From: Escherichia coli
Lineage (GTDB): Bacteria; Pseudomonadota; Gammaproteobacteria; Enterobacterales; Enterobacteriaceae
Reading direction: 5' to 3' (one strand)
DNA: 64,000 nucleotides
Assembly (NCBI RefSeq): GCF_036507355.1
Contig: NZ_AP027877.1
The translations under genes and the position numbers were made by a program. Positions 1-64,000 of this stretch are shown piece after piece. Within the stretch, counting starts at the first letter, position 1. Each line of letters opens with the position of its first letter. The notes under the pieces were generated by a model. It did not search any database, was not told where the DNA came from, and worked only from the letters and a program-made list of their open reading frames with translations.

Positions 1-75
1 GATACTCGCCGTGCGGTGATTGAACGTAGTATCGCGCAGGCGATGCAACATTTGTCGCCGCAGGAGAGTAAATAA
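1..75 (+). CDS. ccmH: 3' end of an upstream CDS, partial; by K-12 synteny probably the cytochrome c biogenesis gene ccmH
   Basis: Open frame reaches a TAA at 73-75; I recall ccmH as the K-12 neighbour of narP; only about 24 codons are visible. Confidence 0.4.
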   Translation, partial: DTRRAVIERSIAQAMQHLSPQESK

Positions 76-134
76 AAAGTGGCCCGATGGTGATTCCATC
101 AGGCCAGACTGATGACAAAGTGCGCTTAGTTTAT

Positions 135-232
135 GCCGGATGCGGCGTGAACGCCTTATCCGGCCTACACAATCGTGTGAATTCAATAAATTGATCGATC
201 CGCGTAGGCCTGATAAGCGTAGCGCATCAGGC
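135..232. repeat. REP/BIME palindromic units (gccggatgcggcgtgaacgccttatccggcctac and gtaggcctgataagcgtagcgcatcaggc)
   Basis: Canonical E. coli REP consensus in two inverted copies between ccmH and narP. Confidence 0.7.
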
Positions 233-285
233 AGTTTTGCGTTTGTCATAAATCTCAGCCCGATGATAAATCCATCGGGCTATTT

Positions 286-933
286 TTATTGTGCCCCGCG
301 TTGTTGCAGGAACAGAATGGTGGCTGCCACGCGTGAGCGGACATTGAGTTTGCGCAGCAGATTGCGAATATGTACTTTTACTGTCTGCTCGGAAATATTC
401 AACACCGAGGCAATCTGTTTATTTGACAGCCCCTGTGCCAGCTCGTGCAGAACATCCAGCTCGCGCTCCGTCAGCACGCTGAAGGGATCTTCTTCCGCGC
501 CAAACATTTCACGTTCATGTAAGTACTGATTGACGCGTTCGCTAAAGACTTTGCTGCCTTTCGCTCCGGCACGAATCGCTTCCAGCAACACTTCCGGGTC
601 GCTGTCTTTCAACAGATAACCGTCTGCGCCTGCGTCTATCAGCGCAAAGACATCGCTGGAGGCATCTGATACGGTCAGGATAATAATTTGCGCGGTAACG
701 CCATCCCTGCGCAAGGCATTGAGGGTATCCAGGCCACTCATACCTTTCATATTGAGATCCAGCAAGATCACGTCGATATCCAGTCTATTCGCCAGATCGA
801 TAGCACTCGCGCCGTCGCCCGCTTCGGCGACCACTTCAAAGCCAGGATCAAGCTCCAGTAACTGACGAACACCGCGTCGCATAAGTGGATGATCATCCAC
901 AATCATCACCTGAAAAGGCGTTGCTTCAGGCAT
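286..933 (-). CDS. narP: Nitrate/nitrite response regulator NarP (LuxR/FixJ family)
   Basis: The ORF translation contains the 215-aa NarP sequence from MPEATPFQVMIVDDHPLMRRG to FLQQRGAQ; start taken at the internal Met with a GGAG RBS; receiver domain plus HTH. Confidence 0.9.
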   Translation of the reverse strand: MPEATPFQVMIVDDHPLMRRGVRQLLELDPGFEVVAEAGDGASAIDLANRLDIDVILLDLNMKGMSGLDTLNALRRDGVTAQIIILTVSDASSDVFALIDAGADGYLLKDSDPEVLLEAIRAGAKGSKVFSERVNQYLHEREMFGAEEDPFSVLTERELDVLHELAQGLSNKQIASVLNISEQTVKVHIRNLLRKLNVRSRVAATILFLQQRGAQ

Positions 934-1503
934 AGTAGTCTCCTGAGGTTTTATTAGAATCATTATGTTTGAGCGTAGCGTTGGTAACGCTACCAGGCGC
1001 GTGAATGTTACCCCATTTTATGTATGGACATGTAGCGAAAACTACAACCTTGTCGTTCGCTTTGGCATCATTTTCATTATAAAGACGGAATTTTGCATCA
1101 GCTTCTCATCAAGAAAAACAACTAAAAAATCAATCACAATACTTGTGCATTTCTTTAAACAGTTTTTAAAAACTGACTCCGGGTATGGAGCTATGGGTAT
1201 TTTCTGTACCCAATGCTTTTAACTGCAATTAATTTCATAGGATGAAAGCTCAATGCATCAATCTGGTTCTGTTTCTCTTTGTCGTTCCGCAATATCTGTT
1301 CTGGTAGCTACAGCGTTATATTCACCCATAGCATTGGCATCAACAGTTGAGTATGGTGAGACAGTTGATGGTGTTGTCCTGGAAAAAGATATCCAGCTGG
1401 TTTATGGGACCGCCAATAATACGAAAATCAATCCTGGCGGAGAACAGCATATTAAAGAATTTGGTATAAGTAGTAATACTGAAATTAAGGTAATGACTCC
1501 AAC

Positions 1504-2007
1504 TTATTGATAGTGTTTTATGTTCAGATAATGCCCGATGACTTTGTCATGCAGCTCCACCGATTTTGAGAACGACAGCGACTTCCGTCCCAGCCGTGCC
1601 AGGTGCTGCCTCAGATTCAGGTTATGCCGCTCAATTCGCTGCGTATATCGCTTGCTGATTACGTGCAGCTTTCCCTTCAGGCGGGATTCATACAGCGGCC
1701 AGCCATCCGTCATCCATATCACCACGTCAAAGGGTGACAGCAGGCTCATAAGACGCCCCAGCGTCGCCATCGTGCGTTCACCGAATACGTGCGCAACAAC
1801 CGTCTTCCGGAGCCTGTCATACGCGTAAAACAGCCAGCGCTGGCGCGATTTAGCCCCGACATAGCCCCACTGTTCGTCCATTTCCGCGCAGACGATGACG
1901 TCACTGCCCGGCTGTATGCGCGAGGTTACCGACTGCGGCCTGAGTTTTTTAAGTGACGTAAAATCGTGTTGAGGCCAACGCCCATAATGCGGGCTGTTGC
2001 CCGGCAT
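1504..2007 (-). CDS. insB: IS1 InsB (expressed as the InsAB' transposase by a -1 frameshift)
   Basis: 167-aa [24 protein letters not shown]; overlaps insA in the -1 frame. Confidence 0.88.
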
Positions 2008-2201
2008 CCAACGCCATTCATGGCCATATCAATGATTTTCTGGTGCGTACCGGGTTGAGAAGCGGTGTAAGTGAACTGCAGTTGCCATGTTTTACGGCAG
2101 TGAGAGCAGAGATAGCGCTGATGTCCGGCGGTGCTTTTGCCGTTACGCACCACCCCGTCAGTAGCTGAACAGGAGGGACAGCTGATAGAAACAGAAGCCA
2201 C
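1926..2201 (-). CDS. insA: IS1 InsA (transposition inhibitor, N-terminal part of the InsAB' transposase)
   Basis: 91-aa [42 protein letters not shown], the zinc-finger InsA. Confidence 0.9.
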
Positions 2202-4632
2202 TGGAGCACCTCAAAAACACCATCATACACTAAATCAGTAAGTTGGCAGCATCACCGAAATTAACGGCGGGTATCAGTACATTGAAATGAATGGCACCGC
2301 AGAATACTCCGTATTAAATGATGGTTATCAAATTGTTCAAATGGGTGGCGCGGCAAACCAGACTACCCTCAATAATGGTGTGCTACAGGTTTATGGCGCA
2401 GCGAATGATCCCACGATTAAAGGCGGGCGCTTAATCGTTGAAAAAGATGGGATTACCGTCCTTGCCGCTATCGAAAAGGGAGGATTACTGGAGGTTAAAG
2501 AGGGGGGATTAGCGATTGCGGTAGATCAGAAAGCAGGCGGTGCTATTAAAGCAAGCACGCGGGTCATGGAGGTATTCGGAACAAACCGTCTCGGTCAGTT
2601 CGAAATCAAGAATGGTATTGCTAACAATATGCTGTTGGAAAACGGCGGAAGTTTGCGAGTTGAAGAAAATGACTTCGCTTATAATACTACTGTAGATAGT
2701 GGCGGCTTACTGGAGGTTATGGATGGCGGGACTGCAACTGGCGTTGATAAAAAAGCAGGCGGAAAATTAATTGTCTCAACGAATGCGCTGGAAGTGAGTG
2801 GTACAAACAGTAAAGGCCAATTTAGTATAAAAGATGGTGTGTCAAAAAATTATGAACTGGATGATGGTTCCGGGCTTATTGTTATGGAGGACACGCAGGT
2901 CATTGACACTATCCTCGATGAGCATGCCACTATGCAATCGCTGGGAAAGGATACTGGTACGAGAGTGCAGGCAAATGCGGTATATGATCTCGGTCGATCA
3001 GATCAGAATGGAAGTATAACGTATTCCTCTAAAGCCATCTCTGAAAATATGGTTATCAACAATGGCCGCGCTAATGTCTGGGCTGGCACAATGGTTAACG
3101 TTTCAGTCAGAGGGAATGATGGCATTCTTGAGGTCATGAAGCCGCAAATAAATTATGCACCCGCTATGTTGGTGGGTAAGGTCGTGGTTTCTGAGGGCGC
3201 TTCTTTAAGAACGCATGGTGTCGTGGATACCAGCAAAGCGGATGTTTCGCTCGAAAATAGCGCATGGACCATCATTGCCGATATCACTACGACGAACCAA
3301 AACACCCTCCTCAACTTAGCCAACCTTGCGATGTCTGACGCAAATGTGATTATGATGGATGAGCCAGTGACTCGTTCATCAGTGACGGCAAGTGCGGAAA
3401 ATTTCATTACGTTGACCACCAATACCCTGTCGGGAAACGGCAATTTTTATATGCGTGCCGATATGGCTAATCATCAGAGCGATCAGCTCAACGTCACCGG
3501 TCAGGCAACAGGTGATTTCAAAATATTCGTGACGGACACCGGTGCCAGCCCGGCAGCAGGAGATAGCCTTACACTGGTAACAACGGGCGGCAGTGATGCT
3601 GCATTTACGTTGGGCAATGCCGGAGGCGTTGTTGATATCGGTACGTATGAATATACCTTGCTGGATAATGGCAACCATAGCTGGAGTCTGGCAGAGAATC
3701 GCGCGCAAATTACCCCTTCAACCACTGATGTGCTGAATATGGCGGCCGCACAACCGCTGGTATTTGATGCAGAACTGGACACCGTGCGTGAGCGTCTTGG
3801 TAGCGTAAAAGGCGTTAGTTACGATACGGCGATGTGGAGTTCGGCAATTAACACCCGCAACAACGTGACCACTGATGCGGGAGCTGGTTTTGAGCAAACA
3901 TTGACGGGCCTGACGCTCGGTATCGATAGCCGTTTCTCCCGTGAAGAAAGCAGTACAATTCGCGGCTTGTTCTTTGGTTACTCTCATTCTGATATTGGTT
4001 TTGATCGCGGCGGAAAAGGTAATATCGATAGCTATACCCTGGGGGCTTATGCCGGTTGGGAGCATCAGAACGGTGCCTATGTTGATGGGGTGGTGAAAGT
4101 TGACCGTTTTGCCAACACCATCCATGGCAAGATGAGTAATGGGGCAACAGCGTTTGGCGATTACAATAGTAACGGCGCGGGTGCTCATGTTGAGAGCGGG
4201 TTCCGTTGGGTTGACGGATTGTGGAGTGTTAGACCCTATCTGGCCTTTACCGGCTTTACCACAGATGGTCAGGACTACACGTTATCAAACGGCATGCGCG
4301 CGGACGTGGGAAATACCCGGATATTACGCGCTGAAGCGGGAACGGCGGTAAGCTATCACATGGACCTGCAAAACGGTACGGCGCTGGAACCCTGGCTGAA
4401 AGCCGCCGTGCGTCAGGAATACGCCGATTCTAACCAGGTGAAAGTTAATGACGATGGCAAATTTAATAATGATGTGGCTGGAACCAGTGGCGTTTATCAG
4501 GCTGGGATAAGGTCATCGTTTACCCCGACGTTAAGCGGTCATTTGTCAGTCAGCTATGGCAATGGCGCAGGGGTAGAATCGCCGTGGAATACCCAGGCGG
4601 GTGTGGTCTGGACGTTCTGATAACAGACAATA

Positions 4633-4662
4633 AACAGGCCGTGATGTGTCGCGGTCTGTTTA
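4633..4662 (+). terminator. Hairpin downstream of yejO (aaacaggccgtgatgtgtcgcggtctgttt)
   Basis: GC-rich inverted repeat immediately after the yejO stop codon. Confidence 0.4.
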
Positions 4663-4682
4663 TCGAATTAAATGCAGATATA

Positions 4683-4716
4683 AAAAAACCAACCTTTACG
4701 GTTGGTTTTTTTGGGA
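4683..4716. terminator. Bidirectional rho-independent terminator (aaaaaaaccaacctttacggttggttttttt) between yejO and proL
   Basis: Stem-loop flanked by an A-run and a T-run. Confidence 0.6.
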
Positions 4717-4720
4717 TTTT

Positions 4721-4797
4721 TGGTCGGCACGAGAGGATTTGAACCTCCGACCCCCGACACCCCATGACGGTGCGCTACCAGGCTGCGCTACGTGCCG
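4721..4797 (-). tRNA. proL: tRNA-Pro (anticodon GGG)
   Basis: Reverse complement reads CGGCACGTAGCGCAGCCTGGTAGCGCACCGTCATGGGGTGTCGGGGGTCGGAGGTTCAAATCCTCTCGTGCCGACCA, a 77-nt cloverleaf with CCA end. Confidence 0.92.
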
Positions 4798-4871
4798 ACT
4801 CGTGGCTGTTAATACTACCGTTTTCCACACCGATTGCAAGTAAGATATTTCGCTAACTGATTTATAATTAA

Positions 4872-6632
4872 TCAGTTAGCGATAAAACGCTTCTCGTCTG
4901 TCAGTACTTGCAATAACAAACTTAACTGTGGTTTTTCATCTTTCACTCTTTCACCACGTAAGTTGTAAGTGCGGTATTTACCGTTATTGTTCAGCACCAG
5001 CGTCTTTTTCGGGGTGGTAATTGCCAGCGTATCGTTATCCGCTGCGGTAACCCAGTAATGACGGCGTTGAGCGTTGAACAAATCCTGACCTTGCGAATAT
5101 TCGCTGGCAGGTGTGCTGACATGTAGCAGGCGTTGCATCAGCGTCGTCATCAGATCGGTATGATCAGTCAGAGCATTAATACGCTGCGCCGGCGTGCCTG
5201 GCCAGTGAATCACTAATGGCACCTGCAGATGACCGTGGGACCAGTCAAAGGTTTCTTCCTCTTCGCTCAGTGGAATACCCCGACCGGCAGTGATAATCAC
5301 TACCGTATTGTCCAGTTTGCCAGAATCACGCAGTGCATTGAGCACGCGGTTGATCTGGTCATCGACATTGCCTGCCGCCCGGCTATATTTCCGTGCAAAT
5401 GCCTGCTGATTGCTGTCGTCAATGTTAGTACCATTGAAAGAAACCCACGAGAACCAGCGGTTATCTTCTTGTGCGTAGCGTCCCAGCCAGTTGATCCACT
5501 GCGTGGCGGTCTGCTCGTCGGATTGGGTGCGTACGCTCGGCATCGAGAAATCTGACAACAATGCCTGGCGATACAGCGGGCTGGTAAAGCCATCTGATGA
5601 GAATAACCCCAGCTGATAGCCTTGCTGATTAAGCGCAGTAATTAATGCCGCAGGCGTACGGGTCGACAGAATGCCGTCCATATAGCTCGGCGAGATGCCA
5701 TAGAACAGGCCAAAGATGCCGTTGTCTGTAGTGTTGCCGGAGCTCATATGGCGCGTGAACGAAATATTTTGCTCAGCAAAACCTGCCAGCGCAGGCATCT
5801 GCTTCTCGAAGCGTGAGTAGTTCAGGCCATCGACAGTAATCAACAAGACATTCTGCCCGGTGCCCATATCGCGATAGCGCAGTTCGCTTAACGGATACTG
5901 AACGGAAACGGCGTCTGGATTACCTTGCTCAATAAGACGGCGTTGATACTCCTGCGCATCAAGCAGGCCATGCTTCTCAAGAAAACGTCGCGCCGTCATC
6001 GGGTACGAAAGCGGCAGGTTAGCGCGCTGCATGGTGATCGGGCGATAGAAGTTGGCATCGGCCCAGATATACACCACATGCGAGGCGATAAAGGCGATAA
6101 ATAAGAATGCGGCAAGCGGGCGCGCGAAGCGCCGACGACGCGTCAGGCTGCGCAGCTTTTGCCAGCTCCACGTCGCAAACACCAGTTCAAGCAATAAAAT
6201 AACCGGCACGCTGATGAACATCAGCTGCCAGTCGCGCGCCATCTCATTTTCGTCTGGGTTGATAACCAGTTGCCAGACGATGGGATTAAGATGGAGATGG
6301 AAACGAGTAAAGACTTCGCTATCGATCAGTAATAGCGTCATTCCCGCCGTTGCCAGAATGACGGACAAAAACCTCATCAGCCTCTGGGAGCCGACGATAA
6401 AGGTCAGCGGGAAGAGGATCAGCAAGTAGGTGGCGAACACCAGGAAGCTGAAATGGCCGATAATGCTTACGTAGGAATAAATGCGACCAGCAAGCGTGGT
6501 CGGCCAGTCGGCGATAAACAGGTAACGGCTGCCAATGACGAGCGAAAGCAGAATATTGAACAGTGCAAACCAGTGCCCCCAACTGACCATCTGGGAGACT
6601 TTTTCACGGTAGCGCTGACGATGAGTTACCAT
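4872..6632 (-). CDS. yejM: Inner-membrane PbgA/LapC (YejM), sulfatase-like periplasmic domain; LPS/cardiolipin homeostasis
   Basis: 586-aa ORF with N-terminal TM helices and an alkaline-phosphatase-superfamily domain; K-12 synteny between proL and yejL. Confidence 0.9.
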   Translation of the reverse strand: MVTHRQRYREKVSQMVSWGHWFALFNILLSLVIGSRYLFIADWPTTLAGRIYSYVSIIGHFSFLVFATYLLILFPLTFIVGSQRLMRFLSVILATAGMTLLLIDSEVFTRFHLHLNPIVWQLVINPDENEMARDWQLMFISVPVILLLELVFATWSWQKLRSLTRRRRFARPLAAFLFIAFIASHVVYIWADANFYRPITMQRANLPLSYPMTARRFLEKHGLLDAQEYQRRLIEQGNPDAVSVQYPLSELRYRDMGTGQNVLLITVDGLNYSRFEKQMPALAGFAEQNISFTRHMSSGNTTDNGIFGLFYGISPSYMDGILSTRTPAALITALNQQGYQLGLFSSDGFTSPLYRQALLSDFSMPSVRTQSDEQTATQWINWLGRYAQEDNRWFSWVSFNGTNIDDSNQQAFARKYSRAAGNVDDQINRVLNALRDSGKLDNTVVIITAGRGIPLSEEEETFDWSHGHLQVPLVIHWPGTPAQRINALTDHTDLMTTLMQRLLHVSTPASEYSQGQDLFNAQRRHYWVTAADNDTLAITTPKKTLVLNNNGKYRTYNLRGERVKDEKPQLSLLLQVLTDEKRFIAN

Positions 6633-6879: not shown

Positions 6880-7060
6880 AAATCGAAATCAGTTAGTTGA
6901 TGAAAGGGCAACATATTACCGTAGCAACGGTTTTTTTTCTGCTTTTTTATGCGTTAAATCATTCTCGTTACGCCGCCTTCTGTAAAATGACCGCCATCTT
7001 TTATTGCGTCGCTTAACCGGCGGTGGTTGAATACCGCCCGGTCTTAAAGGAGAGTTTATC

Positions 7061-8068
7061 ATGAGTCTGGATATCAACCAGATTGCTCTGCACCAGCTTA
7101 TCAAGCGTGATGAGCAGAACCTTGAGCTGGTGTTGCGCGATTCATTGCTGGAACCGACAGAAACCGTCGTTGAGATGGTAGCAGAACTGCATCGGGTCTA
7201 TAGCGCCAAAAATAAAGCTTACGGCTTGTTTAGCGAAGAGAGTGAACTGGCGCAGACGCTGCGCTTACAGCGTCAGGGTGAAGAGGACTTTCTGGCATTT
7301 AGCCGCGCGGCAACCGGTCGCCTGCGTGACGAATTAGCGAAATATCCTTTTGCTGACGGTGGATTCGTGCTGTTTTGCCACTATCGCTATCTGGCGGTGG
7401 AGTATTTGCTGGTGGCAGTTCTGAGCAACCTGAGCAGTATGCGCGTTAACGAAAATCTCGACATCAACCCAACCCATTATCTTGATATCAATCATGCGGA
7501 TATTGTTGCGCGTATCGATTTAACCGAATGGGAAACCAATCCAGAGTCCACCCGCTATCTCACTTTCCTGAAAGGGAGAGTAGGGCGCAAAGTGGCGGAT
7601 TTCTTTATGGATTTCCTCGGGGCCAGCGAAGGGTTAAACGCGAAAGCGCAAAACCGTGGGCTGTTGCAAGCGGTTGATGATTTCACTGCCGAAGCACAAC
7701 TGGATAAAGCAGAGCGACAGAACGTGCGCCAGCAGGTTTATAGCTACTGTAATGAGCAGCTGCAGGCAGGCGAAGAGATCGAACTGGAGTCGCTGTCGAA
7801 AGAGCTGGCAGGCGTCAGCGAAGTGAGCTTCACGGAGTTTGCGGCTGAAAAAGGCTACGAACTGGAAGAGAGCTTCCCGGCAGACCGTAGCACACTGCGT
7901 CAGTTGACGAAGTTTGCCGGTAGCGGCGGTGGCTTGACTATTAACTTTGATGCGATGCTGTTAGGTGAACGCATCTTCTGGGATCCAGCAACCGATACCT
8001 TGACCATTAAAGGCACGCCGCCGAATTTGCGCGACCAATTGCAGCGCCGGACGTCTGGCGGCAATTAA
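7061..8068 (+). CDS. yejK: Nucleoid-associated protein NdpA/YejK
   Basis: 335-aa [22 protein letters not shown]; RBS aggagagtt upstream. Confidence 0.9.
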
Positions 8069-8087
8069 TCGGCTTTGTGTTCTGAAT

Positions 8088-8121
8088 GCCAGATGCGGCG
8101 TGAACGCCTTATCTGGCCTGC
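8088..8121. repeat. REP element (gccagatgcggcgtgaacgccttatctggcctgc)
   Basis: Matches the REP consensus. Confidence 0.7.
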
Positions 8122-8162
8122 AAAAAATAGCAATACCGTAATCAGGCATAATCTGCAGATAC

Positions 8163-8190
8163 AAAAAACCCCGCCGGAGCGGGGTTTTTT
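8163..8190. terminator. Bidirectional terminator aaaaaaccccgccggagcggggtttttt shared by yejK and rplY
   Basis: Perfect GC-rich stem flanked by an A6 run and a T6 run. Confidence 0.8.
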
Positions 8191-8206
8191 ACAACTTATT
8201 CAGCAA

Positions 8207-8599
<393 letters not shown>

Positions 8600-8615
8600 T
8601 CAATCAAAACTACCA

Positions 8616-10376
8616 TTAACCGCGTAATTCGTGCGCCCGACGAAAACGACCTTCGTAATCGAACACTTTTTCACGCACTTGCCAGTACTGACCTTTCATG
8701 CGGGCAACGACAAAATCCGGGTGTCGCAATAAGGCTTGCTGGGCGAGGATATCGGCGGCGGTGATCCAGCGCAGAGGGATGCCCGGTGTGCGCGTATGCG
8801 GGCGGATAAAAAGCTGCTCGAAGGCAGTTCGCTGGGCGGGCGTTTGCAGACGGAAACGCTCACTCACATCCGCGCCGTCTTCATCGTAATAGGTGATTTT
8901 CAACCATTCGCCTTTCTCGTCGTGCCCATGCTGCAAAGACATGCCGCTACAGCGTAATACCAGCGCGTCTTTCAGTCGTAGCGCCGCTTTTAACATATCG
9001 TCAGGATCAACCAGTACCGTGTCACATTCGCGGCAGCGGCGAGCGGCAATATCATTTTCTGCGTTACATTGCGGGCAATTTTTAAAACGGAAACGGAAGT
9101 CACACTGTTCGCGATGACCGTCGTCATCTTCAAACCATCCCTGACAGCGGCGACCAAAGTGTTCAATCAATGTCCCGTCGGCGGTCGTTTTCCCCCAAAA
9201 GGTGTTGGCAAAACCGCAGGCAGGGCAGAAAACCTGTACCGGAACGTTGTCACTTTTGCCTTTCGGTGTACCAACTTCCGGCGCGTAGAGATCGTGAGGA
9301 TTACCCGCATAATCAAGAATTAAGCAATCAGTCTTGCCAGGAGCGAGACGCAGACCGCGCCCGACAATTTGTTGGTAAAGACTCACTGATTCGGTAGGGC
9401 GCAGAATGGCGATAAGATCGACGTGCGGGGCGTCAAATCCGGTGGTCAGTACCGCGACGTTGACCAGATAGCGAAAACGCTGGGCTTTAAAATCTTCAAT
9501 TAACACATCGCGCTCAGCGCCGGGGGTGTCGCCAGTAATCAGTGCAGCATCTTCGGCGGGTAGTAATCCCACAATCTCTTTTGCGTGTTCAACGGTGGCG
9601 GCGAAAATCATCACCCCTTTGCGCGTTGCAGCAAACTCCATAATCTGGCTGATGATGTGCGGGGTAATACGTTGTTGTTTTTTTAGCTCGCGGTTGAGAT
9701 CGGCTTCGCTGAATAGCCCGTTACTCTGTGCCTGCAAGCGGCTGAAATCGTATTGCACTACTGGCATATCCAGTCGTTCTGGCGGCGTCAGATAGCCGTG
9801 TTTAATCATATAACGCAGCGGCAGTTCATAAATGCAGTCACGGAAAAGGGCTTTCTCATCGCCGCGTACCATGCCGTGATAATGGAACTGGTAGATCCAG
9901 CCTTTGCCCAGTCGAAAAGGCGTGGCAGTCAGCCCCAGCAGGCGTAAGTGGGGATTCACTTTTGTCAGGTGAGTGAGGATTTGCTGATACTGGCTCTCTT
10001 CATCGTCACCAATACGGTGGCATTCATCGACAATCAACAGCGAAAATTCACCCTGAAAGGCATCAAGATTACGGGCGACCGACTGCACGCTGCCAAATAC
10101 CACTTTACCGTGGCTCTCTTTGCGCTTTAGCCCGGCGGCAAAAATATCGGCTTCCAGCCCCAGCGCCTGATACTTTGCATGGTTTTGCGCCACCAGTTCT
10201 TTAACGTGTGCCAGCACCAGCACGCGACCACGAGCCAGCCGCGCAAGTTCCGCTATCACCAGGCTTTTACCTGCACCGGTGGGCAGCACGATAACGGCAG
10301 GGGTTTTATGACGACGAAAATGGTTGAGCGTGGCATCCACGGCTTCTTGCTGATATGGGCGGAGTGTAAAAATCAT
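8616..10376 (-). CDS. radD: Superfamily-2 DNA repair helicase RadD (YejH)
   Basis: 586-aa ORF with Walker A (LPTGAGKS), DECH box and a C-terminal zinc-finger Cys cluster. Confidence 0.9.
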
Positions 10377-10524
10377 GGTCTCGCGTAGGTAGATTATTCT
10401 GCTAATAGTATGCCACGGTTCTTTTTCCCTTGAGGGAAGTTATTAGACCGCTATACTGGGCAGACAACAGTTCAGATTTTCGGGTCAATGCCCGACCTCC
10501 GTTTTTACAGGCAAAATCACACAC

Positions 10525-11220
10525 ATGCGACTTGATAAATTTATCGCACAGCAACTCGGCGTTAGCCGTGCTATTGCCGGGCGTGAAATCCGCGGCAATC
10601 GTGTTACCGTCGATGGCGAAATCGTCCGTAATGCAGCGTTCAAACTGCTTCCTGAACATGATGTCGCTTACGATGGCAACCCGCTGGCGCAGCAACACGG
10701 TCCACGTTACTTCATGCTCAATAAGCCTCAGGGCTATGTTTGCTCCACGGACGACCCTGATCACCCAACGGTGCTCTATTTTCTTGATGAACCAGTGGCG
10801 TGGAAACTGCACGCAGCAGGGCGGCTGGATATCGATACCACCGGTCTGGTGCTAATGACTGATGATGGTCAGTGGTCGCACCGCATTACTTCTCCGCGCC
10901 ATCATTGCGAGAAGACCTATCTGGTGACGCTGGAATCACCCGTAGCTGACGATACGGCAGAGCAATTTGCTAAAGGCGTGCAGCTGCATAACGAAAAAGA
11001 TCTCACTAAGCCGGCGGTGCTGGAAGTGATTACCCCAACGCAGGTTCGTCTGACCATCAGCGAAGGGCGTTATCATCAGGTGAAACGCATGTTCGCCGCT
11101 GTGGGTAACCATGTGGTTGAGCTGCATCGTGAACGTATTGGCGGCATTACGCTGGATGCTGATTTAGCCCCCGGTGAATATCGTCCGTTAACTGAAGAAG
11201 AAATTGCCAGCGTCGTCTAA
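10525..11220 (+). CDS. rsuA: 16S rRNA pseudouridine(516) synthase RsuA
   Basis: 231-aa ORF with S4 domain then the RsuA/RluB catalytic motif [17 protein letters not shown]. Confidence 0.9.
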
Positions 11221-11247
11221 CTTTTCAATGACTTTCAGGAGCCCGTT

Positions 11248-12438
11248 GTGACCACCCGACAGCATTCATCGTTTGCTATTGTTTTTATCCTTGGCCTGCT
11301 GGCCATGTTGATGCCGCTGTCGATTGATATGTATCTGCCCGCGCTACCGGTAATTTCAGCGCAGTTTGGCGTACCGGCGGGCAGTACGCAGATGACCCTC
11401 AGTACTTATATTCTGGGCTTTGCGTTGGGGCAGTTAATCTACGGGCCGATGGCAGACAGCTTCGGGCGTAAGCCGGTGGTTCTTGGCGGTACGCTGGTGT
11501 TTGCCGCCGCCGCGGTGGCGTGTGCGTTGGCACAAACCATCGATCAGCTGATTGTGATGCGTTTCTTCCACGGGCTGGCGGCGGCTGCGGCCAGCGTGGT
11601 TATCAACGCTTTGATGCGTGATATCTACCCGAAAGAAGAGTTCTCGCGGATGATGTCGTTTGTCATGCTGGTGACAACCATTGCACCGCTGATGGCACCG
11701 ATAGTTGGCGGCTGGGTGCTGGTGTGGCTGAGCTGGCATTACATCTTCTGGATCCTCGCCGTGGCGGCGATTCTGGCTTCGGCAATGATCTTCTTTCTGA
11801 TCAAAGAAACCTTACCACCGGAGCGTCGCCAGCCTTTTCACATTCGTACCACTATTGGTAACTTTGCGGCGCTGTTCCGTCATAAGCGTGTCCTGAGTTA
11901 TATGCTGGCCAGTGGTTTCAGCTTTGCCGGGATGTTCTCGTTCTTAAGCGCCGGACCGTTTGTCTACATTGAAATTAACCACGTCGCGCCGGAAAACTTT
12001 GGTTATTACTTTGCACTAAACATTGTTTTCCTGTTCGTGATGACCATCTTTAATAGCCGCTTCGTCCGCCGTATTGGCGCGTTAAATATGTTCCGCTCGG
12101 GGTTGTGGATACAATTTATTATGGCAGCGTGGATGGTCATCAGTGCGCTGCTGGGGCTGGGATTTTGGTCGCTGGTGGTTGGCGTTGCGGCGTTTGTGGG
12201 CTGCGTGTCGATGGTGTCATCCAATGCGATGGCGGTCATTCTTGATGAGTTTCCCCATATGGCGGGAACGGCATCTTCGCTGGCAGGAACCTTCCGTTTT
12301 GGCATAGGGGCAATTGTTGGCGCATTGCTTTCTCTTGCGACCTTTAACTCTGCATGGCCGATGATTTGGTCAATTGCATTCTGCGCAACCAGCTCCATTC
12401 TCTTCTGTCTGTACGCCAGTCGGCCGAAAAAACGGTGA
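11248..12438 (+). CDS. bcr: MFS bicyclomycin/multidrug efflux protein Bcr (GTG start)
   Basis: 396-aa ORF with 12 TM segments and MFS signature; K-12 synteny. Confidence 0.9.
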
Positions 12439-12772
12439 TCTATTGCACAACGAGGAAGCTAAAAGGCTTCCTTTGTTGATGCATGTCAACCACAAATCTA
12501 TCATTCCCCCCCGATATATGTTTATTTTATGTAAAATCAATTTATGTAAAAAGTCACATCATTGTAGTTAAAAAGGTTGAGTTAGATCGCAGAAACGGGT
12601 ACATATAGCCCCGCAAACGTGACCACGCCCGCAGATATTACTTAAATCAGAGCCATAGAGGCCACGCAGGCGAGGCATCAATCTTTACGATCTGTATAAA
12701 GACGGATTGTTGATGATGTGTTAAAATTGATGTAAATAAATTGTGAAGTAAATGTGCTTCCGGGGAAAATAA

Positions 12773-13117
12773 GTGACTTCATTACAACTCTCAATCGTCC
12801 ATCGACTGCCGCAGAACTATCGCTGGTCTGCTGGTTTCGCAGGTTCGAAGGTTGAACCGATTCCGCAAAATGGACCGTGCGGTGACAACAGCCTGGTGGC
12901 GCTTAAATTGCTTAGCCCGGATGGTGATAATGCATGGTCGGTGATGTATAAACTAAGCCAGGCGTTAAGCGACATCGAAGTTCCATGTTCGGTGCTGGAG
13001 TGTGAAGGTGAGCCGTGCCTGTTTGTAAATCGCCAGGACGAGTTTGCTGCAACATGCCGATTGAAAAATTTTGGTGTGGCAATTGCCGAACCCTTTTCAA
13101 ACTACAATCCTTTTTAA
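12773..13117 (+). CDS. yejG: Uncharacterised protein YejG (GTG start)
   Basis: 114-aa [21 protein letters not shown]; preceded by an AT-rich 330-bp intergenic region. Confidence 0.8.
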
Positions 13118-16831: not shown

Positions 16832-18652
16832 CTACTCTCCCTGTTGTCTGGCTGACGGCAGTTTGGCCGCTTTATTAACATCATACCACCAGGTATCGAT
16901 ACCCAGACTGTAAACAGGGCGCACAGCGGGTTGGGAGAATTTATCCCACCAGGCGAGACGGTCTTCCGCCATGTACCACATTGGCAGCATGTAATAATTC
17001 CACGTTAATACGCGATCCAGTGCTCGCCCTAACGGTAGTAATTTTTCTTTATTTCCCTGCGCGGCAATAATTTGGTTGATCAGCGAGTCGATAACCGGGC
17101 TTTGCACGCCGGGGGCATTATAAGTGGAATTGATATATTCCGATGACCAGGAAATCTGTAAATCGGAACTGGGCCACGGCATCGCCCGCCATAGGCGCGG
17201 CATCATGTCATAGTCGCGACTGCGCATGCGGTTGGTGATTTGCGAGTTATCCACCTTGTGAATGTCCATGTTGATACCCAGCCGTTGCAGGCTGTGCTGG
17301 AACGGCAATACCCACTGACTATTGCTGCTTGCGGGAAGCAATAATTCAAAGCTGAGCGGCTGACCCGTTGTGGCATTAACGCGTTGCTGACCCTTCAGCA
17401 CCCAGCCCGCTTCGTTGAGAAGTTTGTCGGCTTTTAACAGGTTGTCACGATCGTAGCCATCGCCTTTGGATACCGGCGGCTGGTAGATTTGTGTGAAGAC
17501 TTCTGGCGGTAGATCTTTTTTCATTGGTGCCAGAAGCACCAGCTCCGCGGCGTCGGGGTAATTTCTGGCCGCGTATTCGGTATTCTGAAAATAACTGTTC
17601 GTGCGACTCCAGGCATTGTAAAACAACGCCTTGTTCATCCATTCAAAGTCAAAGGCGAGAGTGATTGCTTCCCGCACCCGGCGATCGCTGAATACTGGAC
17701 GTTGGATATTAAACGCCAGCCAGCGCGTATCCTGGGCTGATTCGTTCTTTTGCTCATCTTTGATGATGTATTTTTTATCGAAATTTTTACCGGTATAACG
17801 CGTGGCCCAGTTTTTAGCGTCGTTTTCCATACGCAAATCAAAAGCACCTGCTTTAAACGCTTCAAAGGCGACATTATCATCGAGGTAATAATCGTAGCGA
17901 ATGGTGTCGAAATTCCAGCGTCCACGGTTTACCGGTAAGTTTGCTGCCCAGTAATCTTTCACGCGGGAATAGACAATATTTTGCCCCATTTTCCAGGACG
18001 TAATTCGGTACGGACCACTGGCAAGCGGAGGCGTGGCGAGTGGATCGCTAAGTTTGTGATCCTTCCAGTACTTTTCTGGAAATACCGGCAGCGAAAACAG
18101 ACTTAACATATCTTCTTTGCCGGGTTTAGCTAACTCAATGCGCACGGTTAACGGCGCAATGGCTTTGACGGTGGTGCCTTTGTAGACCAGACGAAATTGC
18201 GGCACGCCTTCGGTCATAAATTTTTGAAAAGTAAACTCTACATCGCGGGCAGTAATGGGCGAACCATCATGAAAACGGGCGCGCGGATTAATAGCGACCT
18301 CCACCCAGGAATAATCGTCAGCATAGCGTGCACTTTCAGCAATCAGCGGGTAATAACTGCCTGGTTCGTCATCGGAAGTCGTAAATAGCGTGTCGTACAG
18401 CTGCTCGGTGCGTGCGCCCGGGTTGCCGCGCAGTGCATAGCGGTTGAAATTATCGAAGGTGCCGAGGGCTGACAACGTTATCTGCCCACCTTTTGGCGCG
18501 GCGGGGTTCACATAATCAAAATGGTTGAAATTAAACGCGTACCGGGGTTCGCCCAGCACGGCAAAGGCATAGCTTTCCTTGATAGCCTGCGCCTGCGCAT
18601 CAAAGGTGAACAGAGCGATAAACAGCAGCAGTATGCGCACAATCATCTGCAA
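16832..18652 (-). CDS. yejA: Periplasmic oligopeptide/microcin C-binding protein YejA (SBP family 5)
   Basis: 606-aa ORF with signal peptide and OppA-like fold; first gene of yejABEF. Confidence 0.88.
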   Translation of the reverse strand: MQMIVRILLLFIALFTFDAQAQAIKESYAFAVLGEPRYAFNFNHFDYVNPAAPKGGQITLSALGTFDNFNRYALRGNPGARTEQLYDTLFTTSDDEPGSYYPLIAESARYADDYSWVEVAINPRARFHDGSPITARDVEFTFQKFMTEGVPQFRLVYKGTTVKAIAPLTVRIELAKPGKEDMLSLFSLPVFPEKYWKDHKLSDPLATPPLASGPYRITSWKMGQNIVYSRVKDYWAANLPVNRGRWNFDTIRYDYYLDDNVAFEAFKAGAFDLRMENDAKNWATRYTGKNFDKKYIIKDEQKNESAQDTRWLAFNIQRPVFSDRRVREAITLAFDFEWMNKALFYNAWSRTNSYFQNTEYAARNYPDAAELVLLAPMKKDLPPEVFTQIYQPPVSKGDGYDRDNLLKADKLLNEAGWVLKGQQRVNATTGQPLSFELLLPASSNSQWVLPFQHSLQRLGINMDIHKVDNSQITNRMRSRDYDMMPRLWRAMPWPSSDLQISWSSEYINSTYNAPGVQSPVIDSLINQIIAAQGNKEKLLPLGRALDRVLTWNYYMLPMWYMAEDRLAWWDKFSQPAVRPVYSLGIDTWWYDVNKAAKLPSARQQGE

Positions 18653-57700: not shown

Positions 57701-58017
57701 GTGATCTTCCTTAATGCTATGAGTAATTAAGGCGAACGCTAATATACTCGTCATACTTCAAGTTGCATGTGCTGCGTCTGCGTTCGCTCACCCCAGTCAC
57801 TTACTTATGTAAGCTCCTGGGGACTCACTCACTTGTCGCCTTCCTGCAACTCGAATTATTTAGAGTATAAATATTGCGTGCTGATATTAAGGCTATGCGC
57901 GTGGGGAAATTTAAACTGTGAAAGGATTCACAAATAGCTGCGGTTCAGAATGTTATATCCGCAGCTTATTGAGTGAAGTAATAATTATTCTCAATAATTA
58001 ACAGAAAAGAGAAAATA

Positions 58018-60142: not shown

Positions 60143-61269
<1,127 letters not shown>

Positions 61270-61363
61270 TTAATTCGTAAAACGTGCTACCGATCACATT
61301 AAGAATTCTCAGCATAGTTGAATTTTAGGGAGGTAACCTCGGGCGAGCGCCCCGTTCAGCACA

Positions 61364-62272
61364 CTAATTCTGCTGTAAAAAGTGCAGAAACTGACTTAAA
61401 GCATAAGAAGGCGTTTCGTTATTGCGCCAGAACACACCGACGCTACCTTTCTGTTCTATCTTTGGCAGGTTGAGTATCACCAGTTGTCCCTGGCTGGCAT
61501 AACGTTGCGCCAGGCGTAATGACAAAATAGAGATCATATCGCTGCTTTGTAACAGGTTGGTACTGACGTTCATCGACGCCGACTCAATCGTGTTTTCTGG
61601 CAGCATTACGCCGTGGTCTACCAGCGCATTATCAATACTAATGCGAATGGGGGTACCCGTCGGCCAGACGATCCAGCGCCAGTTGGCAAGATCATTCCAG
61701 CTGAGGGTGGCGTATTTCGCCAGTGGGTGCTCAGGGCGGGCGACAAAGCATACTGGCTCGGTGTACAGCACCTGATAATTCAGTGGCAGCTGCAATGCGC
61801 GACCGCCAATTCGCCCAACGACCACATCGACAGAACCTGCCAATAGATCTTGCAGCAATGGGGTCATCACCTTCTCTTCGATATTCAGGTGTAGAGTTGG
61901 CATCTTCGTAAGCAAATGCAAAATCGCCTGGGATACGCAGTCAGTGGCGACGGGAGAACAGCCAATTTTCAGACTGCCGACCAGTCCACCTTGTTTAAAA
62001 CGGGCCAGTTCATGTTGCGATCGCTCCATGTCATTGATTAACCGTTGGGCATGTTGCAATAACAATTTGCCGCCTTCAGTCGGACGTAATCCTTTGCTGT
62101 GCCGCTCAAAAAGTGTGATTCCAATCTCATCTTCGAGTTGTGACAACCATTTCGAAAGCGCAGGTTGGGTGATATTCATCATTCGTGCGACATGGGTTAG
62201 ATTGCCCTGTTCACCCAGCGCCACCAGCATTTCAAGGTGATGTAGTTTTAATTTTTGCGCCCAGTTCGCCAT
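61364..62272 (-). CDS. LysR-family transcriptional regulator (MhbR-like), divergent from the transporter; not recalled at this position in K-12
   Basis: N-terminal HTH LKLHHLEMLVALGEQGNLTHVARMMNITQPALSKWLSQLE; start placed at MANWAQ with a ggagg RBS 9 nt upstream. Confidence 0.7.
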   Translation of the reverse strand: MANWAQKLKLHHLEMLVALGEQGNLTHVARMMNITQPALSKWLSQLEDEIGITLFERHSKGLRPTEGGKLLLQHAQRLINDMERSQHELARFKQGGLVGSLKIGCSPVATDCVSQAILHLLTKMPTLHLNIEEKVMTPLLQDLLAGSVDVVVGRIGGRALQLPLNYQVLYTEPVCFVARPEHPLAKYATLSWNDLANWRWIVWPTGTPIRISIDNALVDHGVMLPENTIESASMNVSTNLLQSSDMISILSLRLAQRYASQGQLVILNLPKIEQKGSVGVFWRNNETPSYALSQFLHFLQQN

Positions 62273-62398
62273 TTGCCATAACCTCCAGGTTATCTCTCTG
62301 CCCGAAATGCCATTGTACATCTCATCTCTTTAATCACAATATCGCAACATATACAAAACAAAAGAAACATCTACCTTACCTGCACTGAGGCATTTACT

Positions 62399-63757
62399 AT
62401 GACTCAACGACGTGATTTACAAGCACTTATCGATGCTGCTCCGGTCGGCAAGATGCAGTGGCGCGTTATCATCTGCTGTTTTCTGGTGGTAATGCTCGAT
62501 GGTTTTGACACCGCGGCTATCGGATTTATCGCCCCTGATATTCGCACTCACTGGCAACTCACCGCAGGCGATCTCGCCCCGCTTTTTGGCGCGGGTCTGC
62601 TAGGATTAACCGCAGGCGCACTGCTTTGTGGCCCGTTGTCCGATCGCTTTGGTCGCAAGCGGGTGATTGAGCTGTGCGTCTTTTTGTTTGGCGCGTTAAG
62701 CCTCGCCTCGGCTTTCTCACCGGATCTGCAAACGCTGGTCTTCCTGCGCTTTCTCACCGGCCTGGGTCTGGGCGGCGCGATGCCGAACACCATCACCATG
62801 ACCTCGGAGTATCTGCCTGCCCGCCGCCGCGGCGCGCTGGTGACGCTGATGTTTTGCGGCTTTACGCTGGGTTCGGCGTTTGGCGGGATTGTCAGTGCGC
62901 AGCTGGTGCCGGTGATTGGCTGGCACGGCATTCTGGTGTTGGGGGGCGTGTTACCGCTGATGCTGTTTGTCGCACTGCTGGTAGTTCTGCCGGAATCGCC
63001 ACGCTGGCAGGTGCGCCGCCAGCTACCGCAGGCGGTGATTGCGAAAACCGTCAGCGCCATCACCCGCGAGCGTTATGTCGATACCCACTTTTATCTCATT
63101 GAATCAGCCTCCGTTACAAAAGGCAGCATTCGTCAACTGTTTATGGGACGTCAGTTACCCATCACGTTGATGCTGTGGGTAGTGTTCTTTATGAGCCTGC
63201 TGATTATTTACCTGCTCTCAAGCTGGATGCCGACGCTACTGAACCATCGCGGCATCGACCTGCAACACGCGTCCTGGGTCACCGCCGCGTTCCAGATTGG
63301 TGGTACGTTAGGCGCGCTGGCGCTGGGTGTGCTGATGGATAAGTTCAATCCTTTCCGCGTGCTGGCGCTGAGCTATGCCATAGGCGCTATATGCATCGTG
63401 ATGATTGGCTTAAGCCAGGATGGATTATGGTTGATGGCGCTGGCGATTTTCGGCACTGGCATTGGCATTAGCGGATCGCAGGTGGGGCTGAATGCGCTGA
63501 CCGCAACACTTTATCCAACACAAAGTCGCGCCACGGGCGTGAGCTGGTCAAATGCTATCGGCCGCTGCGGCGCGATTGTTGGTTCGCTGTCTGGCGGCGT
63601 GATGATGGCGATGAATTTCTCTTTCGACACCCTGTTTTTCATTATCGCTGTGCCTGCGGCGATCAGTGCGGTGATGTTAACCCTGCTGATTACCGTGGTT
63701 CGCCAGTCGACCTCTGTCCCTGACTCACTGCCTCGCGCAGGCGTTGTGAACGAATAA
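62399..63757 (+). CDS. MFS aromatic-acid:H+ symporter family transporter (3-hydroxybenzoate/gentisate transporter MhbT-like)
   Basis: 452-aa ORF with 12 TM segments and an MFS motif, resembling PcaK/BenK/MhbT; not recalled at this position in K-12. Confidence 0.65.
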
Positions 63758-63768
63758 GGAGCATCCCA

Positions 63769-64000
63769 ATGACTGATAACAATCAAAATAGCCGCGAGCA
63801 ATTTTATCAGCATATTTCCGGGCAAAACCTGACCCCGCTGTGGGAGTCACTGCACCATCTGGTGCCGAAAACGCCCAACGCTAACTGTGCGCCAGCGTAC
63901 TGGAATTATCAGGAGATCCGCCCGCTGCTACTGGAGAGCGGCGGCCTGATTGGTGCGAAAGAGGCCGTGCGCCGCGTGCTGGTGCTGGAAAACCCGGCGC
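63769..64000 (+). CDS. Putative gentisate 1,2-dioxygenase-like cupin; 5' part, continues beyond the window
   Basis: [31 protein letters not shown] begins 12 bp after the transporter stop; order and N-terminus resemble Klebsiella mhbD. Confidence 0.45.

Follow-up and report, generated by a model that had tools for sequence, protein, structure and literature searches.

The present analysis concerns the right end of a 64,000-nt stretch of an Escherichia coli genome (contig NZ_AP027877.1; the window hereafter means this whole stretch), where the genes following yohJ very probably represent the E. coli form of the enterobacterial mhb cluster for degradation of 3-hydroxybenzoate through gentisate. 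The cluster consists of a divergently transcribed mhbR and an mhbT-mhbD(gtdA)-mhbH-mhbI(maiA)-mhbM operon, and it appears to be an old resident of the interval between yohJ and dusC. Gene identities, gene order, synteny, distribution and junctions, all observed directly, carry this interpretation. An earlier inspection of the letters of the window (the sequence-only reading) had proposed an mhbR/mhbTDHIM-like 3-hydroxybenzoate-gentisate locus running past the window end, and this is borne out by gene content, order and orthology.

The three open reading frames (ORFs) that the sequence-only reading had placed after yohJ were all found at the positions it gave (Table 1). The first encodes a LysR-type regulator whose top NCBIfam match was PcaQ (TIGR02424) at 187.6 bits, below the equivalog cut-off of 303.8, and judged from sequence it is a PcaQ-like paralogue, not PcaQ itself. 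The K. oxytoca orthologue at the equivalent position shares 84% identity with it. An alternative ORF of 318 aa extends up to an ATG at 62320, but this ATG is not kept in other genera and such a protein would have its helix-turn-helix unusually late; the 302-aa start has GGAGG 7 nt upstream and is also the start chosen by the NCBI Prokaryotic Genome Annotation Pipeline (PGAP). The second ORF encodes a major facilitator superfamily (MFS) transporter with best NCBIfam matches to the 4-hydroxybenzoate transporter PcaK and to the AAHS (aromatic acid/H+ symporter) subfamily. It narrowly missed the AAHS cut-off (TIGR00895, 380.1 bits versus 418.55), and PcaK itself can be ruled out by a score of 427.6 bits, far under the equivalog cut-off of 770. 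Among carriers PGAP names this protein either MhbT or AAHS-family transporter. We infer specificity for 3-hydroxybenzoate by orthology, as the protein is 86–88% identical to its Klebsiella orthologues. Residues Asp82, Val311 and Asp314 are all present, and mutation of these in MhbT reportedly abolished uptake. Both AAHS hallmark motifs, defined as DGXD in transmembrane helix 1 and GXXXD(R/K)XGR(R/K) in loop 2-3 (PMC5566891), are likewise found, the former as DGFD at residue 34 and the latter at residues 78–87. Since transporter and regulator both fall below their family cut-offs, substrate and effector are assigned through orthology alone. The third ORF is the 5′ part of a gentisate 1,2-dioxygenase (GDO) gene, gtdA/mhbD. 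It starts 11 nt past the mhbT TAA (63755–63757), not 12 bp as had been stated, with an AGGAG Shine-Dalgarno sequence at 63757–63761 that overlaps the mhbT stop codon. The 77-residue fragment scored 106.9 bits over model positions 2–71 of TIGR02272 and had no Pfam match, because the cupin domain begins only at residue 92.

The region past position 64000 was read from E. coli ECNB21-M121, which is 100% identical to the window over 61270–64000. In that genome the rest of gtdA is followed by a gene for a fumarylacetoacetate hydrolase (FAH)-family hydrolase, maiA, the 3-hydroxybenzoate 6-monooxygenase gene and then dusC, so that the fumarylpyruvate hydrolase, maleylpyruvate isomerase and 3-hydroxybenzoate 6-hydroxylase genes predicted from the window are all present, and in the Klebsiella order. 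Outside 61270–64000 the two genomes are 98.8–99.7% identical in a gapped comparison, and the window strain is therefore not ECNB21-M121. Of 612 complete genomes in which the part of the cluster seen in the window occurs, 611 have it in its entirety, and the downstream genes can thus be safely inferred in the window strain. Three of the full-length ECNB21-M121 proteins scored above their equivalog cut-offs: 597.6 bits versus 442.1 for the dioxygenase (TIGR02272), 309.2 versus 171.05 for MaiA and 756.4 versus 459 for the 3-hydroxybenzoate 6-monooxygenase. The hydrolase carries an FAA_hydrolase domain, and a putative fumarylpyruvate hydrolase is among the solved structures closest to it. The dioxygenase-like character that had been suggested for the third ORF from its N-terminus holds for the complete protein, in which Cupin_2 was found at residues 92–159; His104, His106 and His145, presumably the metal ligands of the N-terminal cupin, are present as well, all encoded beyond window position 64000.

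A complete route can be proposed from orthology with the M5a1 system of Klebsiella and from the solved dioxygenase of E. coli O157:H7. MhbT would import 3-hydroxybenzoate together with a proton, and MhbM, an FAD/NADH 3-hydroxybenzoate 6-monooxygenase, would convert it to gentisate. The ring would then be opened by the Fe(II) bicupin gentisate 1,2-dioxygenase to give maleylpyruvate, which a glutathione-dependent zeta-class isomerase would convert to fumarylpyruvate for cleavage by the FAH-family hydrolase to fumarate and pyruvate. Transport specificity, regulation and growth phenotype of the window strain would be expected to follow the same lines.

Synteny was assessed by tblastn across 82 loci and in a scan of one genome per species. 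The cluster, arranged R|TDHIM between cdd-yohK-yohJ and dusC and in the same orientation, was found in ~40 species of at least nine genera, among them E. albertii, E. ruysiae, many Citrobacter, Salmonella diarizonae, Klebsiella oxytoca, K. michiganensis and K. grimontii, Kluyvera, Raoultella, Pluralibacter, Pseudocitrobacter and Shimwellia. Between species, identities of the cluster proteins parallel those of the flanks, and the same was seen in per-gene nucleotide identity for E. ruysiae (cluster genes 87–94%, flanking genes 88–98%), Citrobacter youngae (79–86% and 74–84%) and K. oxytoca (73–83% and 77–80%). Within E. coli, 611 of the 5,426 complete genomes (~11%, in a collection that over-samples O157:H7) carry the cluster, including those listed as O157:H7 and O55:H7. 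At the native site ~9% of E. coli have the mhb allele and ~91%, including K-12, have instead an allele with a short filler. The suggestion in the sequence-only reading that the locus might be an island specific to this strain does not hold given this number of carriers, the common yohJ-dusC site in many genera and the lack of island marks. That the genes are missing from K-12, as it had also stated, was confirmed in the K-12-derived strain CJ236. With the cluster at yohJ-dusC in so many genera of Enterobacteriaceae, the K-12 state is most likely a derived deletion by which the cluster was lost.

The junctions are consistent with such a loss. In CJ236, dusC follows yohJ across a 238-nt spacer, in agreement with the K-12 order given in the sequence-only reading. 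Non-carrier E. coli match just the first 36–39 nt of 61270–64000, which places the left junction at 61305|61306. At the other side, the last 40 nt of the K-12 spacer match the spacer that follows mhbM, or 58 nt when the comparison is made with alleles that do not have a repeat insert there. K-12 thereby keeps nearly the whole 61-nt mhbM-dusC spacer, including an intrinsic terminator (GAGGCGCTAACATAGCGCCTC plus a T-run) that is conserved after mhbM in other genera and into which no K-12 gene reads. Between the two remnants, 108 nt of unrelated filler (K-12 spacer locus 2537–2644) replace ~6.2 kb. The filler is single-copy and occurs in 4,920 of the 5,426 genomes with a junction that is always identical. 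Loss in the K-12 lineage is favored because of the terminator, the remnants of both spacers and the single filler junction. Most simply, the locus would be ancestral in the enterobacteria, a single deletion allele would have come to predominate in E. coli, and ~9% of genomes would have kept the mhb allele.

Several smaller features of the junctions were recorded. The filler holds a perfect 11-bp hairpin (AGAGGGATTGC...GCAATCCCTCT). An exact 14-nt direct repeat, TACCGATCACATTA, lies beside the left junction at window 61288–61301 and again inside mhbM (ECNB21-M121 locus 12019–12032 and 17124–17137); ~0.08 such matches would be expected by chance in 6.3 kb, which we regard as near chance level, and the repeat was rejected as a mark of deletion as it coincides with no deletion end point seen. 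The mhbM-dusC spacer (ECNB21-M121 locus 18106–18224) is 159 nt in the allele of the window and O157 type, whereas NCTC9699 and E. ruysiae have 61 nt there. The surplus of ~98 nt includes GGTCCCCTCGCCCCTTCGGGAGAGGGTTAGGGTGAGGG, which looks to us like a boxC-type intergenic repeat, and K. oxytoca and S. diarizonae have other insertions at the equivalent point.

Several observations weigh against this account. Only the regulator, the transporter and 77 dioxygenase codons lie inside the window, the remainder being taken from matching genomes, and of the two complete proteins one is just under the AAHS cut-off and the other well under that of PcaQ. When the source of the filler was sought, neither the cluster nor the spacers of other genera gave a match. 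The searchable literature held no evidence of E. coli carriers growing on 3-hydroxybenzoate. The cluster has also moved into IS (insertion sequence)-rich islands and onto plasmids. Lastly, within E. coli the cluster alleles are 92–97% identical in nucleotide sequence versus 98–99% for the flanks, and some native-site copies could have been re-imported by recombination rather than continuously inherited. Native-site cluster genes differ by 3–8% between E. coli strains, as opposed to ~1–2% for adjacent core genes in NCTC9699, and this contrast implies that recombination between lineages or long-lived allele classes were also involved; the sequences suggest either old allele classes or introgression at the locus.

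Copies at second sites were of several kinds. In the chromosome of E. coli O145 RM9154-C1 (locus 7053–13064) there is a six-gene copy of ~97% nucleotide identity, embedded in a mosaic rich in IS elements next to a truncated lymphostatin gene (efa1/lifA). Remnants of IS3, IS66 and ISEc60 flank it at one end, prophage-like hypothetical genes at the other. The query interval covered (4–6121) is the same for the copies of O103:H2, O145:NM and further strains. The cluster was also present on 12 E. coli plasmids of 47–242 kb and one Escherichia sp. plasmid, at 93–95.5% identity, and 12 of 21 matching plasmid records in PLSDB were predicted to be conjugative. The copy on pN96-1 (locus 6928–12953), with a regulator gene altered at its 3′ end to 927 nt, has remnants of IS91, IS3 and IS256 around it, together with sta1 genes for heat-stable enterotoxin. 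Megaplasmids of Salmonella enterica (80.6%) and a plasmid of K. aerogenes hold more distant copies. In NCTC9100 (locus 5001–5186) the last 186 nt of the 3-hydroxybenzoate 6-monooxygenase gene alone are left, truncated by IS30, and after them come the same hypothetical genes that the O145 island has. The common hypothetical genes and the IS30 cut indicate that this remnant is a decayed copy of the island-borne version.

3-Hydroxybenzoate and gentisate are microbial breakdown products of dietary plant phenolics. It is conceivable, if rather doubtful, that the yohJ-dusC locus is an old presence/absence polymorphism maintained by selection, and that this catabolism acts as a colonization or fitness factor in ruminant and plant niches and travels with virulence determinants. 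Native alleles that have diverged several-fold more than their flanks, together with independent IS-mediated capture beside efa1/lifA in Shiga toxin-producing E. coli of the O145/O103 type and on sta1 plasmids, would fit such a role.

An alternative explanation, which we consider unlikely, is that this strain or its lineage gained the cluster at yohJ-dusC horizontally, as a genomic island. It would accommodate the patchy occurrence in E. coli and the excess divergence of the alleles over their flanks, and the cluster is demonstrably mobile elsewhere, as among the IS elements beside efa1/lifA in O145 and O103 and on the sta1 plasmids. However, it would not account for a site and orientation common to so many genera, with divergence of the cluster equal to that of its flanks, or for the operon terminator and both spacer remnants in K-12. 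At the native site there is no tRNA, integrase, IS or flanking direct repeat at the boundary, no target duplication and no distinctive shift of composition or GC, such that the locus does not qualify as an acquired island there. Homologous recombination among E. coli lineages may have re-imported the cluster, which would not conflict with an ancestral locus.

Another explanation is that the genes are cryptic or decaying in E. coli, give no useful phenotype and are heading for loss as in K-12. Consistent with this, ~89% of the complete genomes are without the cluster and the filler allele is the common one at the site, divergence within the species is raised, NCTC9100 holds a decayed remnant, and no growth data for carriers were found in the searchable literature. 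It is nonetheless quite improbable: all six ORFs were intact and full length in the carriers inspected, and the operator and promoter elements are conserved. The O157:H7 dioxygenase has been characterized biochemically and shows activity in vitro (Adams et al. 2006, Mol Microbiol 61:1469, as cited in PMC4585797), the GtdA protein was detected in O157 proteomes under rumen conditions (PMC9135228), and the Klebsiella genes allow E. coli K-12 to grow on 3-hydroxybenzoate (Robson et al. 1996, as cited in PMC3572157). Finally, degradation of salicylate or another hydroxybenzoate instead of 3-hydroxybenzoate is highly improbable, since the monooxygenase scored only 138 bits on salicylate 1-monooxygenase (cut-off 446) versus 756 on 3-hydroxybenzoate 6-monooxygenase and is 91% identical to the Klebsiella MhbM orthologue. 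The product of salicylate 1-monooxygenase is moreover catechol, not gentisate, and PDB entries of the closest solved relative titled "probable salicylate monooxygenase" (the 4BJY series) are, we believe, of Rhodococcus jostii 3-hydroxybenzoate 6-hydroxylase (3HB6H). The idea is found in older annotations and in metabolic models of enterohemorrhagic E. coli (EHEC), where gentisate 1,2-dioxygenase and a "salicylate hydroxylase" are listed as EHEC-specific reactions relative to K-12 (PMC3229490).

Returning to the probably ancestral mhb cluster, the spacer between regulator and transporter was aligned across 23 genera. Each half-site of a palindrome was identical in 19–20 of these while the remaining spacer was mostly far more variable; single-base variants of a half-site occurred in Shimwellia, Serratia bockelmannii, Trabulsiella, Enterobacillus and Leminorella. 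From this conservation the box is likely to be the operator of the regulator. It lies 6 nt upstream of the regulator start codon and overlaps its Shine-Dalgarno region. A box in the gene's own leader is the classic LysR layout, combining autorepression with activation of a divergent operon. Both hexamers of a putative promoter facing the regulator gene, PmhbR, fall in conserved columns of the alignment. For mhbT, a consensus scan of the spacer gave no plus-strand sigma-70 match, and such a match is often missing at activator-dependent promoters. The PcaQ-like regulator probably binds the near-invariant box within its own 5′ leader, and from this position it would switch on the mhbT operon when inducer is present and keep its own gene repressed. 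Candidate inducers are 3-hydroxybenzoate, gentisate or, as in the Cupriavidus GtdR system, maleylpyruvate (PMC11603403).

The features are collected in Table 1. Upstream of them the window holds sanA, cdd, yohK and yohJ, with the start of yohJ at 61233, and these flanking genes mark the replicon as E. coli. Farther upstream, in the preT-yeiS spacer, the window has an insertion of ~120 nt (57747–57866) relative to ECNB21-M121, and identity between the two genomes drops to 98.8% upstream of it. This insertion contains CGCTCACCCCAGTCACTTACTTATGTAAGCTCCTGGGGA, which we take to be the core of an ERIC/IRU intergenic repeat.

Table 1. Features of the yohJ-proximal part of the mhb cluster, in window coordinates.
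Feature	Position	Strand	Basis
Spacer beside yohJ, common to K-12	61234..61305	.	K-12 spacer positions 1-72 100% identical to carrier
58-nt spacer downstream of regulator gene, missing in K-12	61306..61363	.	Alignment with K-12
mhbR-like LysR-type regulator, PcaQ-like, 302 aa	61364..62272	-	Pfam HTH_1 and LysR_substrate; PGAP LysR family regulator WP_000024633.1
Candidate MhbR operator, palindrome ATAACCTCCAGGTTAT, PcaQ-type box ATAACC-N4-GGTTAT	62278..62293	.	Cross-genus conservation
Sigma-70-like promoter TTGTGA-16-TACAAT, putative PmhbR, facing regulator gene	62312..62339	-	Consensus match only
mhbT-like aromatic-acid/H+ symporter (MFS), 452 aa	62399..63757	+	MFS_1 E=6e-56; PGAP "3-hydroxybenzoate transporter MhbT"
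gtdA/mhbD 5′ part, gentisate 1,2-dioxygenase, 77/342 codons (23%), start ATG at 63769	63769..64000	+	TIGR02272 E=1e-30

The cluster as such is already known, from PGAP annotation (which gives the labels mhbT, gtdA, maiA and 3-hydroxybenzoate 6-monooxygenase), from the crystal structure of the O157:H7 dioxygenase and from genetics and biochemistry in Klebsiella. Its interest in E. coli is as a metabolic marker that sets roughly a tenth of the species, including the listed O157:H7 and O55:H7 strains, apart from K-12, and the locus is more aptly seen as an ancestral enterobacterial one that most E. coli have lost by deletion than as an island gained by transfer. The likely operator can be read straight from conservation across genera. 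If carriers do grow on 3-hydroxybenzoate or gentisate, this could have a modest bearing on how they use herbivore guts and produce as niches. Only two threads appear mildly novel, namely the history of the deletion allele and the IS-mediated spread into virulence-associated islands and plasmids.

Among characterized systems, PcaQ, the protocatechuate regulator of Sinorhizobium and Agrobacterium, represents the best curated family for the E. coli regulator. Its palindromic box, ATAACC-N4-GGTTAT (PMC3557286), is identical to the motif of the candidate operator in the divergent promoter region of the mhb cluster, and the S. meliloti PcaQ site is centered at -65.5 from the target promoter (PMC5002191). 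PcaQ controls protocatechuate genes whereas the E. coli regulator adjoins a gentisate operon, and the effector must therefore differ from that of PcaQ.

The closest counterpart is the mhbR/mhbTDHIM system of Klebsiella "pneumoniae" M5a1 (Jones & Cooper 1990, Robson et al. 1996, Lin et al. 2010 and Xu et al. 2012, as cited in PMC3572157 and PMC11603403). There, MhbR is a LysR-type activator and MhbT transports 3-hydroxybenzoate; the enzymes are a 6-hydroxylase (MhbM), a dioxygenase (MhbD), a glutathione-dependent isomerase (MhbI) and a fumarylpyruvate hydrolase (MhbH) (PMC3572157, PMC4148202). MhbR activates mhbTDHI (PMC3572157). Salmonella typhimurium and Klebsiella are long-known users of the 3-hydroxybenzoate-gentisate pathway (PMC3572157). 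With the type strains of K. oxytoca and K. michiganensis as proxies for the M5a1 sequences, the six genes, their order and orientation, the position between yohJ and dusC and the operator box are all as in E. coli, and the proteins are 84–92% identical in amino acid sequence. MhbD, MhbH, MhbI and MhbM are 342, 233, 214 and 397 aa in E. coli and 345, 232, 214 and 397 aa in Klebsiella (PMC3572157). One difference is the insert in the mhbM-dusC spacer of the window and O157-type allele. At the protein level the ECNB21-M121 dioxygenase does not differ from the bicupin gentisate 1,2-dioxygenase of E. coli O157:H7 in PDB 2D40, the two being identical at 342 of 342 residues.

More distant systems, nagIKL of Ralstonia sp. 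U2, gtdR-gtdA of Cupriavidus necator H16 and gen of Corynebacterium glutamicum, have in common the ring-cleavage chemistry of GDO, isomerase and hydrolase, and NagL, the maleylpyruvate isomerase of Ralstonia sp. U2 (2JL4, 2V6K), is a clear homologue of E. coli MaiA. C. necator likewise combines a LysR regulator, an AAHS transporter and a 3-hydroxybenzoate 6-monooxygenase, with maleylpyruvate as the inducer (PMC11603403). Other gentisate clusters differ in gene order and in their regulators, which are IclR-type (GenR) in Corynebacterium and MarR-type in Burkholderia xenovorans (PMC3572157), and outside Enterobacterales GDO identity is only 55–66%.

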